DNA of 63,839 bases, counting the filler, from Deltaproteobacteria bacterium (GTDB lineage: Bacteria; JAUYMQ01), in NCBI GenBank assembly GCA_030698575.1. It is 11 parts of 11 records of this genome, joined end to end, with 100 filler letters (N's around TTAATTAATTAA, not from the genome) between each part and the next. Parts side by side here need not be neighbours in the genome. Positions count along the whole stretch, not along the records: positions 37,296 to 41,493 come from JAUYMQ010000355.1; 10 more parts are not named here. One strand, written 5' to 3'. Positions within the stretch are counted from its first letter, which is position 1; each line of letters opens with the position of its first letter. Of this stretch, positions 1,008-47,923 are shown piece by piece. Made by a program: the position numbers and the translations under genes. The notes under the pieces are model-generated. The model was not told where the DNA came from. It made no database searches and saw only the letters and a list, made by a program, of their open reading frames with translations.

Positions 1008-2013
1008 CCCCGAGCGTCTCGATGCCGTCCGGGAAGCCCTGGGCGGGCTCTGGACTGACTACAGGTCGGCGGCCGCCGCCGCGGCGGACGAGGTTGAGGG
1101 AATGCTACGCGCGGCGCGGACTGCCGCGGAGGATGACCGGGGGCCGGCCTTCGCCGCGACGCTCGGGTACCTCGGGGCCGCGCACATCGACGTCGAATCG
1201 CTCGCGCCGCTGTTCGACGCCGAAGCGGCGCTCCCCCCGCCTGCGCTCAATGCAATGGAGGCGGCGGCCGCGGTGCTGCGCGAAATCGCCTGCGAGCCCG
1301 ATCCGACCCCGGTGGATCTGCCCCCCGGCGGCAGCCTGACAGACGCCGTCGGACACGCGCTGGCGCGTGTCGGGCGCGCCTTCGGCGCCGCCCATGTCGT
1401 GGCGCTCGCGCGCGCGGGGCGTTTCGACCGGAACGAGCACGGCCCCTGGCTCAAGGCCTATCCATTCTCCCGCTGGTCGCGGCGTGAGCGCCGGCTGGCG
1501 CCTCCGCTCCTGGTGACGCTCGAAGGAGCCGACCTGCGCGCCGGCGGCCTCACGGAATTTCTCGACGGCGCGATCAAACTTGTTCTGATCGTGCGAGACG
1601 ACGCGGCCCCCCCTGCCCCGCTCGTGCGTCTCGTCTCCCCGGGCGTGTATCTGGCGCAGACACACGACGGCGCCGCGCTCGCGCGGCTCGGCGGATGGTC
1701 CGGTCCCGGCGTGGTGGCATGGGTGCCCGAGGGCAGCGCCGCCTTTGTTCACGATCCCGCCGCGGGCCCGGCCCTCGGCGCGCGCATCCAGGTGATCTCC
1801 GAACCGCCGCCCCCCCGCCGCGGTCTCGGCGGACTCAGCGCCGCACAGCTGGCCGACGAGCTGCGCCAGCTCGAGGCGCTCGCGGGTACGGCAACGCTCG
1901 GCGAGCAGCCCGCCCCCTCCGGCACCGATAAAGAAAACCCCGTGGACCGGCTTGCCGCATGGATCCTGAGCCAAGCAAGCGCGGACGACGCCGCGGCACA
2001 GGCCGAACCATGA
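997..2013 (+). CDS. Hypothetical protein in the OFOR/PFOR-RnfB cluster
   Basis: 338-aa ORF overlapping both neighbours; host-like codon usage; no recognisable motif. Confidence 0.7.
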   Translation: MPFDPERLDAVREALGGLWTDYRSAAAAAADEVEGMLRAARTAAEDDRGPAFAATLGYLGAAHIDVESLAPLFDAEAALPPPALNAMEAAAAVLREIACEPDPTPVDLPPGGSLTDAVGHALARVGRAFGAAHVVALARAGRFDRNEHGPWLKAYPFSRWSRRERRLAPPLLVTLEGADLRAGGLTEFLDGAIKLVLIVRDDAAPPAPLVRLVSPGVYLAQTHDGAALARLGGWSGPGVVAWVPEGSAAFVHDPAAGPALGARIQVISEPPPPRRGLGGLSAAQLADELRQLEALAGTATLGEQPAPSGTDKENPVDRLAAWILSQASADDAAAQAEP

Positions 2014-2858
2014 ACCCCGGCGACTTCTTGCTCTCCGCTGGTATCCTGGGCGGAGTGGGGCTGGGGTTTGCCCTCCTGATCGCCCTTGCACACCGCCGGT
2101 TCTACGTCTGGGAGGATCCCCGGCTCGAGGCCGTGTCGCAGATGCTGCCGGGCAACAACTGCGGCGCATGCGGGTTCCCCGGGTGCCGCGGGTTCGCCGA
2201 GGAACTGGTGACGGGGAAGACGAGCCCGGCGACCTGTACAGTCATGAGTGCCGACCAGCGCGAGGAGGTTGCGGAATTAATGGGCGTCGAGGTCGGCACG
2301 GCGGCCTTGCGGGTGGCGCGGCTGCTCTGCGCCGGCGGGCGGGACGAGGCGGTCCGCCGCGCCGAATATGTGGGCCTCCAGACCTGCGCCGCCGCGGCGG
2401 CCGTGTCGGCGGGCGGGAGGGGGTGCACCTGGGGCTGCCTGGGCCTGGGCGATTGCGCGCGGGTTTGCATCTTCGACGCAATCTGGATGAGCGACAACGG
2501 GCTCCCGGTCGTGGAGCCGGAGCTCTGCACGGCCTGCGGCGATTGCGTGGAGGCGTGCCCGAAAGATCTATTCATCCTGATGCCGGCAGAGCAGAACCTG
2601 CTGGTGCAGTGCCGGAACCTGCTGGATGGGGAGCCGGCCACCGACGTCTGCCGGGTCGCCTGCAACACCTGCCGGCGCTGCGAGGCGGACGCCCCGGGGC
2701 TCATCACGATTCGCGATGGCCTCGCGGTGATCGATTACGATCGTTACGATCTGGCGAGCCCCGCCGCGGCGGCCCGCTGCCCGACGGGGGCCATCGTGTG
2801 GCTCGAGGGCCGGCAGTTCCCCGAGGCTTCAATACAGCTGGAGAAGGCGGCATCATGA
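2010..2858 (+). CDS. rnfB: RnfB/RsxB-like membrane-anchored polyferredoxin
   Basis: N-terminal TM, LPGNNCGACGFPGC FeS domain, GCLGLGDCARVC and CTACGDCVEAC 4Fe-4S motifs; ATG at 2010 overlaps the upstream stop. Confidence 0.85.
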   Translation: MNPGDFLLSAGILGGVGLGFALLIALAHRRFYVWEDPRLEAVSQMLPGNNCGACGFPGCRGFAEELVTGKTSPATCTVMSADQREEVAELMGVEVGTAALRVARLLCAGGRDEAVRRAEYVGLQTCAAAAAVSAGGRGCTWGCLGLGDCARVCIFDAIWMSDNGLPVVEPELCTACGDCVEACPKDLFILMPAEQNLLVQCRNLLDGEPATDVCRVACNTCRRCEADAPGLITIRDGLAVIDYDRYDLASPAAAARCPTGAIVWLEGRQFPEASIQLEKAAS

Positions 2859-5800
2859 AGTTCGGACGGCTAAAGAGCGAGTCTGCGGCGCCCCCCCGCT
2901 TCCCGGGCGTACCGTCGGCGGTCGACGGCAGCGAGGCCGTCGTCGCGATGGAGACGGCCGCGAGCGAAGCGGCGGGCGCGTACCCGATCACGCCCTCGAC
3001 CCAGATGGGCGAAGGCTGGGCCGCCGCCGTCGCCCAGGGCAAGCTGAACGTCAATGGGAGGCGGCTCCTCTTCTTCGAGCCGGAGGGAGAGCACGCCGCC
3101 GCGGCCGTTACGGCCGGCATGAGCATGGTGGGACTCCGGGCGACGAATTTCTCGAGCGGTCAGGGCATTGCCTACATGCACGAGTCGCTCTATGCGGCGG
3201 TGGGCAAGCGCCTCACCTACGTGCTGAACGTCGCCTGCAGGGCCATGACCAAGCACGCGCTGAACGTCCACGCCGGCCATGACGATTACCACGCCGTGGA
3301 CGATACGGGGTTCTTCCAGCTCTTCGCGAAGAACGTGCAGGAGATCGCCGATCTCAACCTCATCGCCCACCGCGTGGCCGAACTGTCGCTCAATCCCGGA
3401 ATATGCGCGCAGGACGGATTCCTGACGAGCCACGTGATCGAGTCGATCGTCCTGCCGGAGCCCGATCTCGTCAAGGCCTTCCTCGGAGATCCCGCCGACC
3501 TGATCGACTCGCCGACTTCGTCCCAGAAGATGGTTTTCGGCGCGAGGCGCCGCCGCATTCCCGAGATGTTCGATCTCGACTATCCGGCGATGCTGGGGGT
3601 GGTCCAGAACCAGGACAGTTATGCCCAGGGCGTCGCGGCCCAGCGGCCCTTCTACTTCGATCACATCGTCGAGCTGACAGAACGTGCTTTCGACGAGTAC
3701 GCCGCGCTCACCGGCCGCCGCTACACCCGCGCCAGCGGCTACCGGATCGAGGACGCCGAGTACGTCATTGTGGGGCAGGGCTCTATCGTCTGGAACGCGG
3801 AAGCCGTCTGCGACTACCTGCGCGATACCAAAAAGCTGCGCGTCGGCGTCGTAAACCTGACGATGTTCCGGCCCTTCCCCAGCGATCTCCTGGCGTCCCT
3901 GTTGCGCGGGAAGAAAGCCGTCACGGTGCTGGAGCGCGTGGATCAGCCGCTCGCGGCCGACGCGCCGCTGCTCAGGGAGATCCGGGTCGCGCTCGCGAAG
4001 GCGGTCGAGAACGGGCGGGCCCGGGGCACCGTGCCCCACGCCGGGGTACCGCCACTCCGGTCCGAGGAAGTGCCCGATTTCTACTCCGGCTGCTTCGGCC
4101 TCGGCAGCCGTGACGTCCAGGCCGGTGAGCTGGTCGCCGCGGTGGAAAACATGCTCCCCGGGGGCAAGCAGCGGCGCCAGTTCTACCTGGGCATCGACTT
4201 CGTGCGGCCGGGCACGCAACTGCCCAAGCTCGAGATCTGGCAGCAAGAGCTGCTGGCCGCCTACCCGCACCTGCCCGACCTTTCGATTCACGCCGGCGAG
4301 GACGTCAATCTGCTCCCGAAGAGATCGGTGGCGATCCGAATCCATTCGGTCGGCGGCTGGGGCGCGATCACGATGGGCAAGAACCTCGCCCTCACCGCCT
4401 CGGAGCTGCTCGGACTGCACATCAAGGCCAATCCGAAGTACGGATCGGAGAAGAAGGGCCAGCCCACCACCTTCTACGCCACGCTGGCGCCCGAGGCGAT
4501 CCGCATCAACGCCGAACTGCGCCACGTCGACGTCGTGCTCTCGCCCGATCCCAACGTCTTCCGCCACTCCGACCCGATTGCCGGCCTGGCGGACGGTGGC
4601 GTCTTTGTGCTTCAGAGCGAACGGGGCCCGGAGGAAGTGTGGAAGAACCTACCCCCGGCGACGCAAAGGCAGATCCGGGCGCGAAACATCCGCATCTTCA
4701 TGATCGACGGCTTCAAGATCGCCGCCGCGGAGGCCTCCGAGGCCGAGCACCGGTTCCGGATGCAGGGCGCGGCTTTCATGGGGGCCTTCTTCCGCGCCTC
4801 TCCACTGCTTGACGGGAGCGGGCTCGACGAGGCCCGGCTCTTCGAGGGCATCCGGAAACAGCTCGCGAAGAAATTCGGGCGCCTGGGCGAGCGGGTGGTG
4901 GAGGACAACCTCCGGGTCATCCGCCGCGGATACGAGGAATTGCAGGAGGTGGACTACGCCGCGCTGCCCGACAGCCGGGCCGAGCTGGGCTCGTTGCCCG
5001 TGATGCCCACGGAGCTCGACGCCAGCCACATGGCCCCGGGCATCGGGAACGCCGGACGGTTCTGGGAGCAGGTCGGGTTTCTCTACCGGACCGGCGAGGA
5101 CGGCATTGCCGATCCCTTCGCCGCGATCAGCGCCATCCCGGCCGCGACCAGCACGATCCGCGACATGACCGACATGCGGTTCGAGGTGCCGGAGTTCATC
5201 GCGGAGAATTGCACCGGCTGCGGACGTTGCTGGGTGCAGTGCCCCGACGCCGCCATCCCGGGGCTCGTGAACAGCATCGAGCAGCTTCTGGAGGCCGCCG
5301 TGGCGCAGCACGCCGACGGGAGGACCTTCGAGCGGATCCGCCCCGTGCTCCGGCCCCTCGCGCGCGAGGCCCAGCGCCTGCTGGCGGGGCCCACACGAAA
5401 CATCCCCGCGGCGCTCAGCGAGGCCTACACGGGCGTCGTGGAGCGCATGGGGATGGATCCCGAACGCCGCGCCGCCACCGACGCCGAGTTCGCGGTGATC
5501 CACGCCGCACTCGCCGATTTCCCGCTCGCCAAGACCGGGCCTTTCTTCGAGGTGCCGGAATCGAAGGAGAAGGGGAGCGGCGGCCTGCTCTCGATCACCG
5601 TCAACCCGGAGGCATGCAAGGGGTGCAACATCTGCGTCGAGGTCTGTCCCGACGGCGCGCTGATCACGGTCAAGCAGGACGAGGCGATCGTCGATCGGCT
5701 GCGGACCAACTGGGCCCTCTGGGAGCGCCTGCCCGACACTGACGACCGTTACGTGAATGTGCTGGACCTGGAGGAGGGCATCGGGGTTCTCAGCTCACTC

Positions 5801-9027: not shown

Positions 9028-9092
9028 GAGATTGCTTCGTCGGGCTTCCGGCCCGCGCTTCGCACGGGCCCTCGGCCCTCCTCGCAATGACA
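9028..9092. repeat. REP-like palindromic repeat copy (GATTGCTTCG...CTCGCAATGAC)
   Basis: Same terminal motifs as copies at 28664, 37429-37597, 41727 and 47435-47652. Confidence 0.85.
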
Positions 9093-11103: not shown

Positions 11104-12675
11104 ATGAAGATTCGTGATCATTACTATGAGATCCTGAAGGAACTGGGTGAGGACCCGGAACGGGAGGGGCTCCGCAAGTCGCCCGACCGCGTGGAGAAGG
11201 CCCTTCGCTTCCTGACGGGCGGCTACCAGAAGGATCCGAAACAGGTGCTCAACGGCGCGCTCTTCACCGAGGAGTACAACGAGATGGTCCTCGTGAAGGA
11301 CATCGATGTCTTCAGCCTCTGCGTGCCAAGTAAGCAGATCGTCAACGCCGTACGGGGCGCCAAACCCGCCCGAAACCTGCGTGTGGGTGATGAGCTCTGG
11401 ACGCTGCATGAAGGCAGGATCGCAAGAACGACCATCACGAAAATCTCGAGCAGGGCCAGCAGGGATGTGGTCGTTCTGAGGACGGATAGGGGAACCTTCA
11501 AAGTGACGTCGGACCACCCCGTCATGACGGATCAGGGATGGCAGGAGGCGGGCAAGGTGGATCCGGGAGTCAGAATCGAGTGGATCAATCCCAGGTCGCT
11601 TTGTCGGAGACGCGTAAGACCGCAAGAAGGCTACCCGCTCGGATACGTCCTGGGAGCCGTTGCATCCGATGGAAGTCTGCAGGATGGCCGTCGCATCTGC
11701 CTCACTGTCACGAACCACAAATTCGCCGGCAGGTTCGCTGAGATGTTCGGCGAGGCCTTCGCGGTATCCACACCTCGCATGGAAAGAGTGAAGGTTCCGT
11801 CAGGTTACCGTGGGGAGGAGATCCAGGCCTATCGAGTTCGAGTCGTATCCCGGGACGCGGGCGAGAAACTCTGCCGGTGGCTCGGGGTCCACGAGAAGGG
11901 GGCCCGCTCGAAGACGAAGACCTTTCGTTTCCCGGAAGTAACCCTTTCCTCAAGGGAGATGTTCGCCGGATTCCTTGACGGCTACTGCGACGGAGACGGT
12001 CATTCCCTGAAGAAGGGCGGCGGACGAATGATCGTCACGTCCAACCGCGGGTTCGCAGAGGAACTGGCGCGAGTGCTGCAAACGACAATTGGGAAGGGAC
12101 ATCCCGGCATTTTCCGGGTTTACATATCGCGTCGATGGGACCAGGAAGGATGGTATGGGCGACACGGATTCCGAAAGGAGCGGGAGTTCTACGTTCCCTT
12201 CGACAGCGCCTGGGCGACGGTACTGGGGGTCGATCGTGTTCCCCGGCCGAAGAAGCCCTATCGCGTCTACGCGATCAAGTGCGAACCGCATCCGACCTTC
12301 CTGGTTGCGGGACATCTAACCCACAACTGCGAGCACCACTTGCTCCCCTTCTTCGGCAAAGCCCACGTGGCCTACATCCCCGACAAGAAGATCGTCGGCC
12401 TCTCGAAAATCGTCCGCCTGATCGAGATCTACGCCCGCCGCCTGCAGGTCCAGGAGCGGCTGACCAACGAGGTCGCACAGACCATCGCGGAGCAGCTCGA
12501 GCCGCAGGGTGTGGCGGTCGTCATCGAAGCGCAGCATCTCTGCATGCAGATGCGCGGCGTCGAGAAGCAGAACTCCATCGCCATCACCTCGGCCATGCTC
12601 GGCCAGTTCCGCGAGAACGCCAAGACCCGCAGCGAGTTCCTGGGCCTCATCCACAGCGGCATCCGCCACGTCTAA
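11104..12675 (+). CDS. folE: GTP cyclohydrolase I with an intein (187-aa extein + 336-aa intein)
   Basis: [12 protein letters not shown]|..|[32 protein letters not shown]. Confidence 0.95.
11320..12327 (+). mobile_element. Intein with LAGLIDADG homing endonuclease
   Basis: Cys1 (CVPSKQ), block B TSDHPV, LAGLIDADG-like [11 protein letters not shown] and [12 protein letters not shown]-terminal LTHN followed by +1 Cys. Confidence 0.93.
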
Positions 12676-37295: not shown

Positions 37296-37428
37296 GCTCT
37301 TGGGAATCCCCTCATGCCGCTCGGACGGCGAAGAGATGACTCTGGCAAGACCAGATCCCAGGCGAAACCCAGGAACGGCACCGAAGAAGACAAGGGCGAG
37401 CCCTTGCATCCCGGCGCGCTTTCAGAGA
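37296..37428 (+). mobile_element. 133-bp non-coding end of a multicopy element (probable IS110/IS1111 right end), copy 1
   Basis: Identical to 41594-41726; outward TTGCAT 19 nt from the end; abuts a truncated REP copy; structured. Confidence 0.65.
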
Positions 37429-37597
37429 TGCGAGGAGCGAAGCGACGAAGCAATCCCCTCCATGGCCGCATCTTTAGTTCCGGAGGGTGGCAAGCGCGAA
37501 GGGGATTGCTTCGGCACACCCCTGCGGGGCGTGCCTCGCAATGACATGCGAGTCCTTCCCGCGGGACCAGAGGCCACCCTCCTCGCAATGACACGCG
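37429..37597. repeat. Cluster of REP-like repeats (one 5'-truncated by the element, one inverted partner, one partial)
   Basis: TGCGAGG...GAAGCAATCCCC; GGGGATTGCTTCG...CTCGCAATGACATGCG; CCTCCTCGCAATGACACGCG. Confidence 0.85.
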
Positions 37598-37647
37598 GCT
37601 GATTTCCGCGCGAACAGACCGACTAGCGCACGAGGTTGATTTCTCAA

Positions 37648-38433
37648 ATGGACGAATCACAGGACATCCTGAAGCTGGGAAAACACACGTTCCGATCGCG
37701 GCTCATTGTTGGTTCCGGAAAGTATCCGTCGCTCGACGTGCAGCGCGCGGCCATCGAGGCGTCGGGGGCGGATCTCGTCACCGTGGCCATCCGGCGCGTG
37801 GATCTCCGCGCGCAGGGCGAGGGGAGCTTCATGGCGAGCCTCGATCTGTCGCGCACGCGGCTCCTGCCCAACACCGCGGGCTGCTACACCGTGGACGAGG
37901 CTGTCACGACCGCGCGTCTGGCGCGGGAGCTTTGCGGGACCGATCTGATCAAGCTCGAGGTGATCGGCGACGAGCGCACGCTTTTCCCCGACGCCGAGGC
38001 GCTCCTCCGCGCGGCGGAGATTCTCCTCGGTGAGGGATTCACCGTCCTTCCCTATTCGAATGACGATCCGATCCTGAACCGGAAGCTTGCCGACCTCGGC
38101 TGCCCCGCCGTGATGCCGCTCGGGGCCCCGATCGGCTCAGGGCTGGGCGTGCGCAACCCGACCAACATCCGGATCATCCTCGAAACCGTCGGCGTGCCCG
38201 TGATCCTCGACGCGGGCGTCGGGACCGCATCCGACGCGGCCATTGCCATGGAGCTCGGCTGCTCGGCCGTCCTGATGAACACGGGCATCGCCGGGGCGAA
38301 GGATCCGGTGCAGATGGCGACGGCGATGAAACACGCAGTGATCGCCGGCAGGCTGGCTTACGAAGCAGGACGCATCGAGAAGAAGCTCTACGCCACCGCA
38401 TCGAGCCCGCTCGATCAACGGATCGAGGTCTGA
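37648..38433 (+). CDS. thiG: Thiazole synthase
   Basis: [52 protein letters not shown]. Confidence 0.97.
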
Positions 38434-38441
38434 GGCCGCGC

Positions 38442-39077
38442 GTGGCCGGCGCGATGGGCGGCGTGTACTTCATCACCGACCGGCGCCGGAGCATGGGGCG
38501 GCCGGTGGCCCAGCTGGCCGCGGAAGCAGCGGCCGCGGGCGTCGGGCTCATCCAGGTTCGGGAAAAAGATCTCCCGACGCGCGCCCTCCTGGAACTCCTG
38601 CGAGAGGTGCAGGCAAGTGCCGGGGGCGCGGAGATCCTCGTGAACGACCGCGTGGATCTGGCGCTGGCCGCGGGCTGCGCGGGGGTTCACCTGGGCGCCA
38701 CGACGCTTCCGGTCGCGGCGGCGCGGAAGATCGCGCCGGGGCTTTGCATCGGTTACTCCGCTCACGCCCTCGACGAGGCGCGGCGGGCCGAGGCCGACGG
38801 GGCCGACTTCGTGACCTTCAGCCCGATCTTCAAGACCGACTCGAGCGGCGCGACAAATCTTGCGCCCCAGGGGGTCGGGAAACTGGCCGAGGTCTGCAGA
38901 GCGCTCGGCATTCCGGTTTACGCCCTCGGAGGCGTGACCGCCGGGCGCGTCCCGACGCTGATCGATGCAGGCGCTGCGGGAGTGGCGGTTGTCTCGGCGA
39001 TCACCGAGGCGCCGGACGCCGCGACCGCGGCCCGAAAGCTGGTTGAACTTGCGCGCGGGGCGTCCCCGCGGGAGTGA
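38442..39077 (+). CDS. thiE: Thiamine phosphate synthase (ThiE/TenI family)
   Basis: YFITD, IQVREK, VNDRVDLA, GVHLG, SAH, SPIF.T.S, YALGG; TenI not excluded. Confidence 0.8.
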   Translation: MAGAMGGVYFITDRRRSMGRPVAQLAAEAAAAGVGLIQVREKDLPTRALLELLREVQASAGGAEILVNDRVDLALAAGCAGVHLGATTLPVAAARKIAPGLCIGYSAHALDEARRAEADGADFVTFSPIFKTDSSGATNLAPQGVGKLAEVCRALGIPVYALGGVTAGRVPTLIDAGAAGVAVVSAITEAPDAATAARKLVELARGASPRE

Positions 39078-39081
39078 ACGC

Positions 39082-40353
39082 ATGAACGGACCGACGAAGG
39101 CCACGCGCATCACGCACCCCGACGTCCACGACGCCGCGTTCCTCTCACGCATTGATCCGGAGGTGGCGCGCATCCTTGATCACTCGCTCGCGGGCGGCGA
39201 GATCGCCGAAGCCGACGCCACGACGCTGTTTGACACCGAGGGCGCGGAGATGTCGGCGCTCCTGGCGGTCGCGGATCACCACCGGCGGGACGCCAACGGC
39301 GATCTCGTCACCTTCGTGTTCAACCGCAACATCAACTTCACGAATCGCTGCTTCGTCGGCTGCCAGTTCTGCAACTTCAAGGTCCGCGACGCGAGCCCGA
39401 AAGCCTACTATCAGGATATCGAGGCGGTCGCCCTCCGGGCCGACGAAGCGGTCGAGCGCGGCGCCACCGAGGTGTGCATCCAGGCGGGCCTCAACAAGGA
39501 TCTCCCCGGCAACCACTACGAGGCCGTGCTGCGGGCGATCAGGTCGCGCCACCCCTCTCTCCACATCCACGCCTACTCACCCATGGAAATTCATTACGGC
39601 GCGAAGCGCACCGGCAGAAACGTTCGCGATCATCTCCTGGCACTGAAGGACGCCGGGCTCGACACCATCCCCGGCACGGCCGCGGAGATCCTGGTCGACG
39701 AGGTGCGCAAGCGCATGTCGCCCTACAAACTCACTGTGGACGAGTGGGTCAACGTCGTCACAGCCGCGCACGAGGCGGGAATTCCCTCGACGTCCACCAT
39801 CATGTTCGGCCACATCGAGGAGCGGTGGCACTGGTCGCGCCACCTGTCGGTCATCCGGGATCTTCAGAAGCGGACCGGCGGCATCACCGAGTTCGTCCCC
39901 CTCGCCTTCGTTCACACGCTCACACCTCTCTATCTCGCCGGCGGCTGCCGGCCCGGGCCCACGGCGGAAGAGAAGATCAAGATGTACGCTGTGAGCCGGC
40001 TGTTCCTGCGAGGCTGGATCGACAACATCCAGGTCTCCTGGCCCAAGCTCGGGCACGCGCTCGCACAGACCTGCCTCGACGCAGGCGCGAACGATTTCGG
40101 CGGAACGCTGATGGAGGAGTCGATCTCGCGCATGGCCGGCGCCGTTCACGGGCAGTACGTGAGCCCGGATGCGTTCCGTGAGATGATCTACGGGATGGGG
40201 CGTCTGCCGGCCCAGCGGAGCACGCTCTACCGGCTGCTGCGCATCTTCCCCAAAGCGGGGCAGCCCCCGATCGTGCCCGACGAACTCCGTATTCCCTCGA
40301 CCGCCGGCGCGCCGGCCATCGACGAGATGGCTTTCTCGGAGGCGGCGGCGTGA
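39082..40353 (+). CDS. cofH: FO synthase subunit CofH (radical SAM)
   Basis: NRNINFTN, CFVGCQFC, IPGTAAEIL, NIQVSWPKLG, GANDFGGTLMEESISRMAGA. Confidence 0.85.
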   Translation: MNGPTKATRITHPDVHDAAFLSRIDPEVARILDHSLAGGEIAEADATTLFDTEGAEMSALLAVADHHRRDANGDLVTFVFNRNINFTNRCFVGCQFCNFKVRDASPKAYYQDIEAVALRADEAVERGATEVCIQAGLNKDLPGNHYEAVLRAIRSRHPSLHIHAYSPMEIHYGAKRTGRNVRDHLLALKDAGLDTIPGTAAEILVDEVRKRMSPYKLTVDEWVNVVTAAHEAGIPSTSTIMFGHIEERWHWSRHLSVIRDLQKRTGGITEFVPLAFVHTLTPLYLAGGCRPGPTAEEKIKMYAVSRLFLRGWIDNIQVSWPKLGHALAQTCLDAGANDFGGTLMEESISRMAGAVHGQYVSPDAFREMIYGMGRLPAQRSTLYRLLRIFPKAGQPPIVPDELRIPSTAGAPAIDEMAFSEAAA

Positions 40354-40361
40354 AGTTTTGG

Positions 40362-40429
40362 GCATAAAGATTTGAACAACGGAATCTTTGGAAGACGGGC
40401 ATAAGATTTGAGCATAAAGATTTGAACAA
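40362..40429 (+). repeat. Three AT-rich direct repeats GCATA(A)AGATTTGA(ACAA)
   Basis: Copies at 40362-40379, 40399-40411 and 40412-40429. Confidence 0.85.
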
Positions 40430-40462
40430 AAGATTCTTGGTTAGCCACAACGTGGAGGCAGC

Positions 40463-41493
40463 ATGATCGGACAGGGCGGACAGCTCATTGCGCGGGCGCT
40501 GAAGAACGAGGGGGTCGACACGATCTTCACGCTCTGCGGCGGGCACGTGTTCGCGATCTACGACGGGTGCATCGACGAGGGCATCAAGGTGGTCGACGTC
40601 CGGCACGAGCAGGCGGCGGCGCACGCGGCCGACGCCTGGGGGCGCATCACCGGGACCCCGGGCGTGGCGGTGGTGACGGCGGGCCCCGGCGTGACCGACG
40701 CGGTCACGGGCGTGGCGAACGCCTGGCGCGCCTCGTCGCCCATGCTCTGCATCGGCGGCCAAGGCCCCTTTTCAATGTTCAAGAAGGGGGCGCTCCAGGA
40801 GATGGATCACGTGGCGCTCATGGCGCCCATCACCAAGTGGTCGGACCGCTGCTTCGAGACGCGCCGGCTGCCCGAGTACGTGGCCATCGCGATGCGCCAC
40901 GCGATCACGGGCCGGCCGGGCCCGGCGTTTCTCGAGGTGCCGCTCGACGTCATGATCAGCAGCTCGCCGATCGACGAGGTCGAGTTCCCGACGAACTACT
41001 ACACGAACGCCAAGAGCTACGGCGATCCCGAGTACGTAGAGATGGCCGTGAAGCTCCTTCAGAGCGCGCAGAAGCCGGTCGTCATGGCGGGCTCATCCGT
41101 CTGGCTCGGTCGCGCGCAGGACGCGCTTCGCCGCTTCGTCGAAGAGGCGGATCTGCCGGTCTATCTGAACGGCATGGGGCGCGGCTGCATGCCGCCCGAC
41201 CACCCGAACTTCTTCAGCCACACACGCGGCTTCGCGCTCGACTCCTGTGACGTGGCCATCGTGATCGGCACGCCGCTCGATTTCCGGCTCGGCTACGGCA
41301 AGTCGATCCCCGAAAACGCAAAGATCATCCAGATCGACATCGACCCCCTCGACATCGGCGTGAACCGCGGCGCCGACGTCGGCATCGCCGGGCACGTGGG
41401 CGCGATCCTCGATCAGATCGTGAAGGCGATCCCCGAGATCGCCGGCCCGCGCGAGGGGCGGCGGCACACGGGGTGGATCGAGGAGATCCGCGC
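40463..41493 (+). CDS. TPP-dependent enzyme (acetolactate synthase / 2-hydroxyacyl-CoA lyase-like), 3'-truncated
   Basis: FTLCGGH, DVRHEQAA, TAGPGVTD, GALQEMD, DFRLGYG. Confidence 0.9.
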
Positions 41494-41593: not shown

Positions 41594-41726
41594 GCTCTTG
41601 GGAATCCCCTCATGCCGCTCGGACGGCGAAGAGATGACTCTGGCAAGACCAGATCCCAGGCGAAACCCAGGAACGGCACCGAAGAAGACAAGGGCGAGCC
41701 CTTGCATCCCGGCGCGCTTTCAGAGA
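41594..41726 (+). mobile_element. 133-bp non-coding end of a multicopy element (probable IS110/IS1111 right end), copy 2
   Basis: Identical to 37296-37428; followed by a different REP copy (41727-41756) cut at the same position. Confidence 0.65.
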
Positions 41727-41872
41727 TGCGAGGAACGAAGCGACGAAGCAATCCCCTGCGCGCTCGGCATCCTTCTCGGCGGCGGAGCCCGCGTGGGTCC
41801 CGCTGTCTTGACGCTCTCCGGGTCCGGGTCTACCGTGAGCGGCGCCGGCGGAAGAAAGGAAGGAGGCTCCTC

Positions 41873-42643
41873 ATGGGGTCCGATATGGTGCATGTCGAGC
41901 GGGACGGGGCGATTGCGATCTGCCACCTCGATCGTCCACCCGCGAACGCGGTCGACATTGCCTTCGTGGACCGGATGGCGGAGATGTTCGAGCGAGTGCT
42001 CGCGAAGGACGACGTCGGGGCCGTCGTGCTCACGGGAAAAGGCGCGTTCTTCTCGGGCGGGCTCGATCTGAAGGCTGTTCCCGCCTACGGCCCCGAAGAG
42101 CAGCGCGCGCTCATCGAGAAGGTCAACGCGATGGTCACGCGCATCTACGGCTTTCCGCGTCCCGTCGTCGCCGCCGTGAACGGCCACGCCGTCGCGGCCG
42201 GCCTCATCCTCATGCTTACGGCCGACTATCGCGTGGGGACCGATGCGCCCTGTAAGATTGGCCTCACTGAAGCGCGCGTCGGCATTCCGTTTCCGGCCGG
42301 GCCCATGGAAGTATTGAAGGCCGAGGTGACGCCGCACGTGGCGCGCGTGCTCGCGCTCGAGGCGCGCAACATCGGCCCGGCCGCGGCCCTCGAGAAAGGG
42401 CTTCTCGACGAGCTGCAGCCGCCCGGTCGCGTGCTGCCACGGGCACTGGAGGTAGCGCGGGATCTCGCGGGCATTCCCTCCGAGGCCTATCGCCGGATCA
42501 AGCGCCAGCTTCGCGGCGATACGCTGGCCCGGATGGAGGCGATCGTGGCTGAACGATCCGATCCGATGCTCGAGGCCTGGATCCCGCCGGGCGCCGCGGA
42601 GGCGTCGGCCGCTGTGCTCAGGGGGACGGGGGGAGGCGGCTGA
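41873..42643 (+). CDS. Enoyl-CoA hydratase/isomerase family protein
   Basis: FSGGLDL, VAAVNGHAVAAG, GLTEARVG; SD AGGAGG. Confidence 0.92.
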   Translation: MGSDMVHVERDGAIAICHLDRPPANAVDIAFVDRMAEMFERVLAKDDVGAVVLTGKGAFFSGGLDLKAVPAYGPEEQRALIEKVNAMVTRIYGFPRPVVAAVNGHAVAAGLILMLTADYRVGTDAPCKIGLTEARVGIPFPAGPMEVLKAEVTPHVARVLALEARNIGPAAALEKGLLDELQPPGRVLPRALEVARDLAGIPSEAYRRIKRQLRGDTLARMEAIVAERSDPMLEAWIPPGAAEASAAVLRGTGGGG

Positions 42644-47434: not shown

Positions 47435-47652
47435 CGCATGTCATTGCGAAGCGGGCCGCCCGAGGTCCCGCGCGAAGCGCGGGCCGAGAACTGGCCGATA
47501 CGACCCGACGAAGCAATCCCATGGCAGCCGCCCGCATGTCATTGCGAGGCGGGCCGCAGGCCCGACGAAACAATCCCGTGGCAGCGCCACCGGTCCCGAG
47601 CACGAAGGGGATTGCTTCGGCGCCCCTCCAGGGCGCCTCGCAATGACATGCG
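47435..47652. repeat. Cluster of three REP-like repeats (two direct, one inverted)
   Basis: CGCATGTCATTGCGA...GA(A/G)CAATCCC twice, then GGGATTGCTTCG...CTCGCAATGACATGCG. Confidence 0.88.
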
Positions 47653-47923
47653 CTTCCACCCGGTCTTTGCGAGGCCCGAGGTTCCGCGCGAAACCATCGC
47701 ACGCTTTGCGCCCGGCGCCTCCGTCCGTCTCCGAACGCGCAAGTTTTTCTCCAGCGATCCCCGCGTCATATTGTCGGCGCCCGTAAACATTCATCGTTTC
47801 CAGCGAAGTCGCGATTGGCGCAAAAATTGCATGAAATTGCCCCATTCGGAGGGGGTCGCTAGCCGCGGACGGCGCTGACGGGTCCGGGGTACACCAAGAC
47901 CGGCTTCGAGCAGAGGGGTCCGT

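Follow-up and report, generated by a model that had tools for sequence, protein, structure and literature searches.

Two REP sequences of a deltaproteobacterial draft genome very probably interrupted at the same position by the right end of an IS1111-group insertion sequence

Background

Insertion sequences of the IS1111 group insert at a single, sequence-specific site and leave no target duplication. They are described as having subterminal inverted repeats that measure 7-17 bp and mostly 11-13 bp, terminal extensions of 7 or 6 bp on the left and 3 bp on the right, and transposases of 330-350 aa (PMC11187229), and as encoding the bridge RNA in the right end (PMC11208160). In the seekRNAs of this group the segment matching the top strand is placed 5' of the segment matching the bottom strand, and the two overlap in the target (Siddiquee et al., PMC11187229). 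According to the same article, ISEc11 of E. coli, a 1,443-bp member with subterminal inverted repeats and 7-bp and 3-bp extensions, has a 3' non-coding region essential for movement, produces an 82-nt seekRNA and forms a promoter at the circle junction; ISEc11 is the only element for which such a promoter is presented there. ISXne4 is given as a case of natural retargeting by guide replacement, and the seekRNA of ISPa11, an IS1111-group element of Pseudomonas aeruginosa that uses REP sequences as targets at a fixed position, was demonstrated and originates 3' of the transposase gene (PMC11187229).

IS621, an IS110-group element of E. coli, is described in PMC11208160 as combining a DEDD recombinase with a bridge RNA that has target and donor loops and is encoded in the left end; its subterminal repeats are 2-3 bp long, its targets are REPs and its core dinucleotide is CT. 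ISPpu9 and ISPpu10 of Pseudomonas putida (IS110 family) are described as multicopy elements occupying REP sequences, and ISPpu9 as having a small-RNA gene downstream of its transposase gene, with extra ssr9 copies elsewhere.

The DNA analysed here, referred to as the window, is a stretch of 63,839 nucleotides from a draft genome of a deltaproteobacterium (GCA_030698575.1), in which 11 contigs are strung together with N/ttaattaattaa spacers. Two of its contigs begin with the same 133 nt, which are very probably the right end of a multicopy insertion sequence of about 1.3 kb, belonging to the IS1111 group of the IS110 family and inserted in the same orientation and position in two REPs. The targeting of REPs by IS1111/IS110 elements is already known from ISPa11, IS621 and ISPpu9/10, and the element of the window is a further example. 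It shares with ISPa11 the REP target at a fixed position and the origin of the guide RNA downstream of the transposase gene, and differs from it in host lineage, REP family and guide sequences, as far as can be judged from the description of ISPa11 rather than from its sequence. The comparison with ISPpu9/10 likewise concerns their description only. The target of ISEc11 is a short linear sequence as opposed to a REP, and in the family to which the window element belongs, called L110-type here after its closest full-length relative, (A)TG is repeated at both junctions and the right extension is 3-4 nt long, unlike in ISEc11. The L110-type family departs from IS621 in encoding its RNA in the right end, in having longer subterminal repeats (12-15 bp) and in having TG as the shared dinucleotide.

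Results

Two contigs with a common start

Contig 6 (37296-41493) and contig 7 (41594-45749) open with practically the same sequence. Direct comparison of 37296-37458 with 41594-41756 gave agreement at 162 of 163 positions, the sole mismatch being G/A at offset 141, inside the remainder of a REP. Copy 1 (37296..37428, + strand) comprises the final 133 nt of the insertion sequence, i.e. part of its 3' non-coding region and the right end, and aligns with L110:2323-2459. Copy 2 (41594..41726, + strand), at the start of contig 7, is identical to it at 133 of 133 positions. A BLAST search with the 133 nt against all 11 contigs returned these two full matches (133/133), both at the 5' ends of contigs, and otherwise only matches of 23 nt or less. 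Downstream of the REP remainders the two contigs diverge completely into unrelated DNA, copy 1 being followed by thiG (37636-38433) and copy 2 by an enoyl-CoA hydratase gene (41873-42643). The GC content of the two contigs is 0.667 and 0.668.

The initial annotation, which had reported two contigs opening with the same 133 bp, each continuing into a REP-like remainder with one SNP between them and different genes downstream, was therefore correct as to the identity, and its BLAST search, run here on the 11 contigs of the window, brought up no other full-length copy. The figure of 133 bp did not hold as a limit of the repeat. The first base that tells contigs 6 and 7 apart comes after exactly 141 identical nt, and their common start is probably a k-mer overlap in the assembly graph of a de Bruijn assembler (the type of assembler that we infer) with k=141. 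The 133-bp figure is thus an effect of the assembly and has no biological meaning, and the repeat extends further 5' than 37296. A repeated element would have made the assembler break at this point, each contig beginning one k-mer (141 nt) ahead of the first base specific to its locus.

The interrupted REP and the position of the junction

Both copies run on into TGCGAGGA(G/A)CGAAGCGACGAAGCAATCCCC, at 37429-37458 in contig 6 and at 41727-41756 in contig 7 (both on the + strand). Sequence comparison identified these stretches as remainders of a REP-like repeat, whose head is GTCATTGCGAGG and whose tail is GAAGCAATCCC; the GTCAT of the head is missing from both, and copy 2 carries A for G at 41735. 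Six exact copies of the head are present in the window, at 47538 on the + strand and at 9080, 28703, 37534, 37581 and 47636 on the - strand, and two further heads in REP context, at 47440 and 47663, have one mismatch each. The intact copies that had been placed at 47435 and 47533 are those at 47440 and 47538, counted from CGCAT. REPs are short, multicopy, intergenic and palindromic repeats, often arranged in inverted pairs, and here the 63 kb contain 8 intact and 2 truncated heads distributed over both strands, those at 37429-37545 and 47538-47647 forming inverted pairs. The summed depth of REP 31-mers in the public run X1 was 1,600-3,300. A literature search gave nothing on this particular REP motif, and the thiG neighbourhoods of 80 relatives (identity <=69 %) were almost devoid of REP motifs, a single motif being present at each of 2 loci.

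In all 8 intact heads (C/T)(A/T)T precedes TGCGA, and the two junctions read AGAGA-TGCGAGG. Since it is T and not A that stands before TGCGAGG in the intact heads, position 37428 (41726 in copy 2) is the last base that the REP cannot supply. The final bases not derivable from the REP form the terminal extension GAGA (37425..37428, + strand). Comparison with the 8 intact heads (GTCAT-TG) bore out the claim that TG is all that the junction (AGAGA-TG) shares with the intact REP. Contigs of the public runs X1, X2 and X4 that contain the REP and lack the element have ...GTCAT directly before the sequence starting at 37429.

The TG at 37429..37430 (+ strand) is probably the crossover (core) dinucleotide, judging from the presence of TG at both junctions in 16 of 16 full-length relatives and from the end of the homology to L110 directly after it. 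For the L110-type family the exchange site would thereby be narrowed to TG, as it is TG and not ATG that the junction and the target have in common at this locus. The insertion would have occurred between GTCAT and TGCGAGG of the REP, with strand exchange at or beside TG. Both right junctions, which are the junctions that the window contains, lie at the identical REP position and are followed by unrelated genes, so the description of two loci with one breakpoint stands.

Some further variation was noticed among the REPs. BIME-like clusters of REP-like units alternating in orientation are located at 47435-47680 and 37429-37592. The distance from the GTCATTGCGAGG head to the GAAGCAATCCC tail varies among the units, and both insertions sit in the shortest form. 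In addition, contigs of X1 link 37458 to 37527 or 37577, dropping 68 or 118 nt between REP units, which indicates REP-mediated length variation among related genomes.

Full-length relatives of the element

A transposase gene is absent from the window (best tblastn match with E 0.048), as the annotation had noted, and relatives of the 133 nt were looked for in other genomes and metagenomes. The L110 element was found on a metagenome contig by a 22-mer scan. It is a complete element of 1,330 bp with an ORF of 351 aa in which the domains PF01548 and PF02371 were detected, and the C-terminal part of this transposase matches the solved IS621 chain 8wt6_A with E = 7e-13. The 185-nt non-coding region of L110 aligns with all 133 nt of the window sequence through TG (111 of 139 columns identical), and the similarity is lost directly after AGAGA-TG (3 of 15 columns). 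L110 is the closest full-length element, with 80 % identity over the end; its insertion site is not a REP. Its subterminal inverted repeat is 12 bp long, GGCGCGCTTTCA on the right with the inverted partner TGAAAGCGCGCC near the left end. The terminal extensions of L110 are 6 and 3 nt if the repeated ATG is assigned to the left end, and the window element needs at least 4 nt (GAGA) beyond its repeat; depending on the assignment of ATG, the right extension in the L110-type family is 3-4 nt, with (A)TG repeated at both junctions.

BLAST searches were performed in five genomes and then in 251 genomes of one phylum, the Methylomirabilota, to which G003 belongs. Many short matches were returned and only proven copies were counted; true copies of the element amounted to 10 places in 8 genomes, all covering positions 14-62 of the query, and in these places the conserved block lies directly downstream of an ORF of about 360 aa. 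With protein searches, the number of full-length relatives rose to 16, their lengths being 1,184-1,526 bp. PF01548 (DEDD_Tnp_IS110) and PF02371 (Transposase_20) were present in 6 of 6 full-length ORFs tested (L082, L083, L089, L095, L110 and L112). All 16 relatives have the layout left flank ...TGA-TG-G..T-GAAAGCGC ... GCGCTTTCAGA(G/T)(A/T)-TG-right flank, with TG at both junctions. Their subterminal repeats are 12-15 bp long, their non-coding regions span 153-343 nt in intact elements, and their transposases, at 351-363 aa, slightly exceed the length of 330-350 aa given for IS1111. An early placement of the left end of L110 at CTCTTGG, with AAGAGAUGAC as the guide for a GTCAT|CTCTT junction, was dropped, as the 16 relatives fix the left end at TG-G..T-GAAAGCGC.

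Searches elsewhere returned little, and they brought up no closer relatives in which guides directed at REPs might be expected. In 239 genomes of the order of G657, whose RNase G was the most similar among 10 genomes (61 % identity), the 133 nt found no counterpart; a single chance match of 24 nt came from 401 genomes of the class of G657, and none from 401 genomes of the phylum of G001, where the L110 transposase matched in 1 of the 401. Exact-pattern scans with pieces of the 133 nt gave 0 genome contigs (34-mer), 0 metagenome contigs (26-mer) and 0 viral contigs (19-mer), and blastn of plasmids gave no match. The literature search returned nothing specific to the L110-type subfamily; it or its guide code may be listed in the supplementary tables of PMC11208160 and PMC11187229, two 2024 articles with catalogues of many elements, these tables lying outside that search.

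Several relatives deviate from the complete form. In L081 (G003), L085 (G104) and L088 (G167) a guide-RNA module and a right end are present with no IS110-type gene upstream; these may be remnants or non-autonomous derivatives, and they resemble the extra ssr9 copies described for ISPpu9. L130, L131 and L135 have transposase frames that are shortened or interrupted (319, 309 and 261 aa; one TGA within the match, G242:C25), the right end of L131 carries an extra G (CAGAGTA-TG), and the three look like decaying copies. In L117 and others the transposase ORF passes through the T guide and the hairpin described below and stops at a TGA inside the B guide, so that coding and guide RNA overlap. L114, L115, L117, L131 and L135 are inserted at the centre of palindromes whose arms resemble tRNA T-arms (GGTTCGAATCC); ARAGORN reported no tRNA gene at these T-arm-like targets. 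The L110-type subfamily thus also seems to favour repeats that form hairpins.

Assignment to the IS1111 group

Homologues of the 133 nt occupy the non-coding region directly downstream of genes encoding PF01548 and PF02371, as expected of the IS110/IS1111 end proposed in the initial annotation, whose site-specific IS1111-type interpretation is supported. The long non-coding region 3' of the transposase gene, carrying a guide RNA, was recognized by alignment with L110 and with the relatives from the phylum Methylomirabilota. A subterminal inverted repeat within the range of 7-17 bp is represented in the window by GGCGCGCTTTCA at 37413-37424, and its left partner was seen in L110. The arrangement of the IS621-like IS110 group, with the RNA in a long left end and repeats of 2-3 bp, was not found, as the RNA of the relatives is in the right end and their repeats are 12-15 bp long. 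The long 3' non-coding region and the subterminal repeats of 12-15 bp of the relatives place the element in the IS1111 group and not in the IS621-like IS110 group; short asymmetric extensions, as read in L110 with ATG given to the left end, are a further published mark of the IS1111 group (PMC11187229, PMC11208160).

Organization of the right end in the window

The features of the right end are given for copy 1, all on the + strand. Contigs 6 and 7 start 16 nt before TCATGCC, and the window holds only the part of the predicted seekRNA/bridge RNA that follows the target-binding loop. Both target guides, as well as the left end, would lie upstream of the contig starts, the guides by about 15-60 nt, so that the match between guides and REP lies beyond the window.

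The predicted scaffold hairpin 2 (37311..37335) is formed around the invariant TCATGCC (37312-37318) and corresponds to helix 4 of the consensus structure, in which 98.3 % of cells are paired and 2 pairs show a compensatory change; the hairpin also appears in the single-sequence fold. Hairpin 3 (CUGG-CAAGA-CCAG, 37342..37354) was obtained in the single-sequence fold, and the same hairpin is present in L110; L111-L113 have C-G where the window has U-A in an alignment judged by eye. The single-sequence fold of the window region as a whole was no better than those of shuffled sequences (z = -0.37), and Rfam assigned no family to 37296-37700, the best result being a chance microRNA match with E = 5.1.

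At 37332..37338 stands AGAGATG, a sense copy of the right end of the element plus TG, the same 7-mer being found at 37424-37430. In the relatives, the variants AGAGATG, AGATATG and AGATTTG accompany the right ends CAGAGA-TG, CAGATA-TG and CAGATT-TG, respectively, which suggests that this segment could act as a guide for the donor end, comparable to the donor loop of bridge RNAs. The G/T base that varies in the segment also pairs structurally (column 75 with column 100) and the covariation with the right end involves only about two independent changes, so that AGAGATG is treated here as a candidate guide whose role we infer from the comparison.

A spacer separates hairpin 3 from TTGCAT (37404..37409), an outward -35-like hexamer placed 19 nt from 37428, as first annotated. 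The position is conserved: 14 of 17 elements, among them the one in the window, have a TTGNNN hexamer at a distance of 18-20 nt from the right end. It is followed by the right subterminal inverted repeat GGCGCGCTTTCA (37413..37424), identical to the right repeat of L110.

Two other guide candidates within the 133 nt were rejected. A right-flank guide (GGGAAUCCCC, UGACUCU) showed just 4-6-nt matches in an inconsistent register, and the T guide of the relatives is located upstream. TCATGCC was considered, as the counterpart of GGCATGA, as a guide for the start of the left end; it is invariant while the left end varies, and no claim is made for it.

Guide segments in the RNA of the relatives

The RNA modules of 14 relatives were aligned with the window sequence to obtain a consensus structure. 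It consists of a closing stem (CGCGG with UUGCG), an inner hairpin, the hairpin around the invariant TCATGCC and, as judged by eye, a third hairpin further 3'. Within the consensus 97.8 % of cells are paired, compared with 29-50 % when the partners are slid, and 5 of 19 pairs show a compensatory change. A loop separates the closing stem from the inner hairpin; its two strands are the guides, and each matches the flanks of its own element. The B guide, on the 3' strand, repeats 7-9 nt of the left flank, together with the T of TG, in the sense orientation and occupies a fixed position in the RNA (13 of 13). The T guide, on the 5' strand, is antisense to A-TG and the right flank over 6-9 nt in 11 of 13, L113 and L131 having no T guide. 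In a permutation test with 10 elements, the B guides attained 40 of 50 (mean of the shuffled pairings 15.8), a score that 0 of 100,000 permutations reached, and the T guides 42 of 70 (mean 24.7), a score that 3 of 100,000 reached; the elements tested represent at least 8 different targets, and as three of them share a left flank they are not fully independent. The order of the guides in the relatives, with the top-strand match followed by the bottom-strand match and the two overlapping in the target, agrees with the order described for IS1111 seekRNAs in PMC11187229, where the seekRNA of ISPa11 is shown with the top-strand match 5' of the bottom-strand match.

The left flank before TG is ...TGA in 16 of 16 relatives, with the B guide ending ...UGAU, and the REP reads GTCAT-TG. 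With T in the REP where the relatives have A, the B guide of the window element would differ at a position invariant among the relatives. In the register set by TG, the REP head TCATTGCGAG agrees at 8 of 10 positions with UGAUUGCGAC, which comprises the invariant end of the B guide and the 3' strand of the stem closing the loop. If this agreement is not due to chance, it is conceivable, though doubtful, that REPs are targeted through a duplex running from the programmable guide across the core into a structural stem, i.e. by recognition of sequence plus structure, or that REPs and guide RNA share ancestry.

Discussion

Proposed structure and movement of the element

By homology, the element would consist of a DEDD transposase gene followed by a non-coding region that makes the guide RNA (seekRNA/bridge RNA). 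If its target loop is built as in the relatives, the T guide would be antisense to A-TG and the right flank, the B guide would be sense to the left flank plus T, and both would match the REP. Full-length copies bearing the transposase would be expected upstream of both contigs, with the left end predicted to read TG-G..T-GAAAGCGCGCC and to be preceded by a REP head ending in GTCAT. Movement may proceed through a circular intermediate, whose junction would read ...TTTCAGAGA-TG-G..TGAAAGCG.

Alternative explanations

Because the window shows nothing upstream of 37296, the two copies might be transposase-less remnants, either solo right ends or a short non-autonomous derivative, unlinked from a full insertion sequence; 3 of 16 related RNA-plus-right-end modules (L081, L085 and L088) have indeed no IS110-type gene upstream. 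We regard this as quite unlikely. The identity of the two copies at 133 of 133 positions points to recent movement, whereas the remnants among the relatives have diverged ends, L088 being without the AGA-TG end. The public runs speak in the same direction: a 1,483-nt contig from groundwater (X1) and a 1,352-nt contig from marine sediment (X3, a different study) carry the 133 nt and the REP at their 3' ends with one differing letter, and they reach 1,308 and 1,189 nt upstream of the 133 nt, respectively. In L110, 1,196 nt of the element stand ahead of the aligned start, so the upstream lengths fit a full element of about 1.3 kb, the two contigs being known by their measured lengths. Shorter contigs of 265 nt (X2) and 311 nt (X4) extend 60 and 165 nt, respectively, beyond the contig starts in the upstream direction. 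The window may itself derive from the X1 sample, in which case X1 would not be independent.

The window is part of a fragmented draft and the REP remainders differ by only one base, and it could be argued that only one of the loci adjoins the repeat, or that contigs from different strains or organisms were placed in one bin. Such an artefact of assembly or binning is very improbable, since an overlap of 141 nt would need k-mers spanning element, REP and unique flank and would imply that both junctions are present in the reads; the downstream genes are unrelated, the GC contents of the contigs are nearly the same, and X1, X2 and X3 each have a contig that joins the end of the element to the REP. 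That the 133 nt belong to a larger REP/BIME-type repeat of the host or to a non-mobile repeat of another kind (an rRNA or tRNA flank, for instance) is hardly credible: they do adjoin a REP in a repeat-rich region, but no Rfam family was recovered, and their homology is specific to the region between the transposase genes of IS110-family elements and the right ends. The right end of a multicopy IS1111-group insertion sequence is the reading preferred here.

Implications

The insertion of one element at two loci accounts for two assembly breaks in this genome. It also points to a mobile element that is active, or was until recently, and for which the REPs ahead of thiG and of an enoyl-CoA hydratase gene are safe landing sites. 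The known mechanism of these elements is left unchanged. The relatives represent a compact IS1111-type subfamily from uncultured lineages of groundwater, soil and sediment, in which two short guide segments, each with a fixed position, read at least 8 targets that differ naturally, TG being common to every junction. They illustrate clearly how guides are reprogrammed in nature, and new RNA-guided recombinases might be drawn from them.

Apart from the insertion sequence, the window contains an ORF of 523 aa for GTP cyclohydrolase I (11104-12675) with an internal LAGLIDADG_3 match, the cyclohydrolase domain being split into two matched stretches. From this domain arrangement, the insertion is probably an intein with a homing endonuclease.
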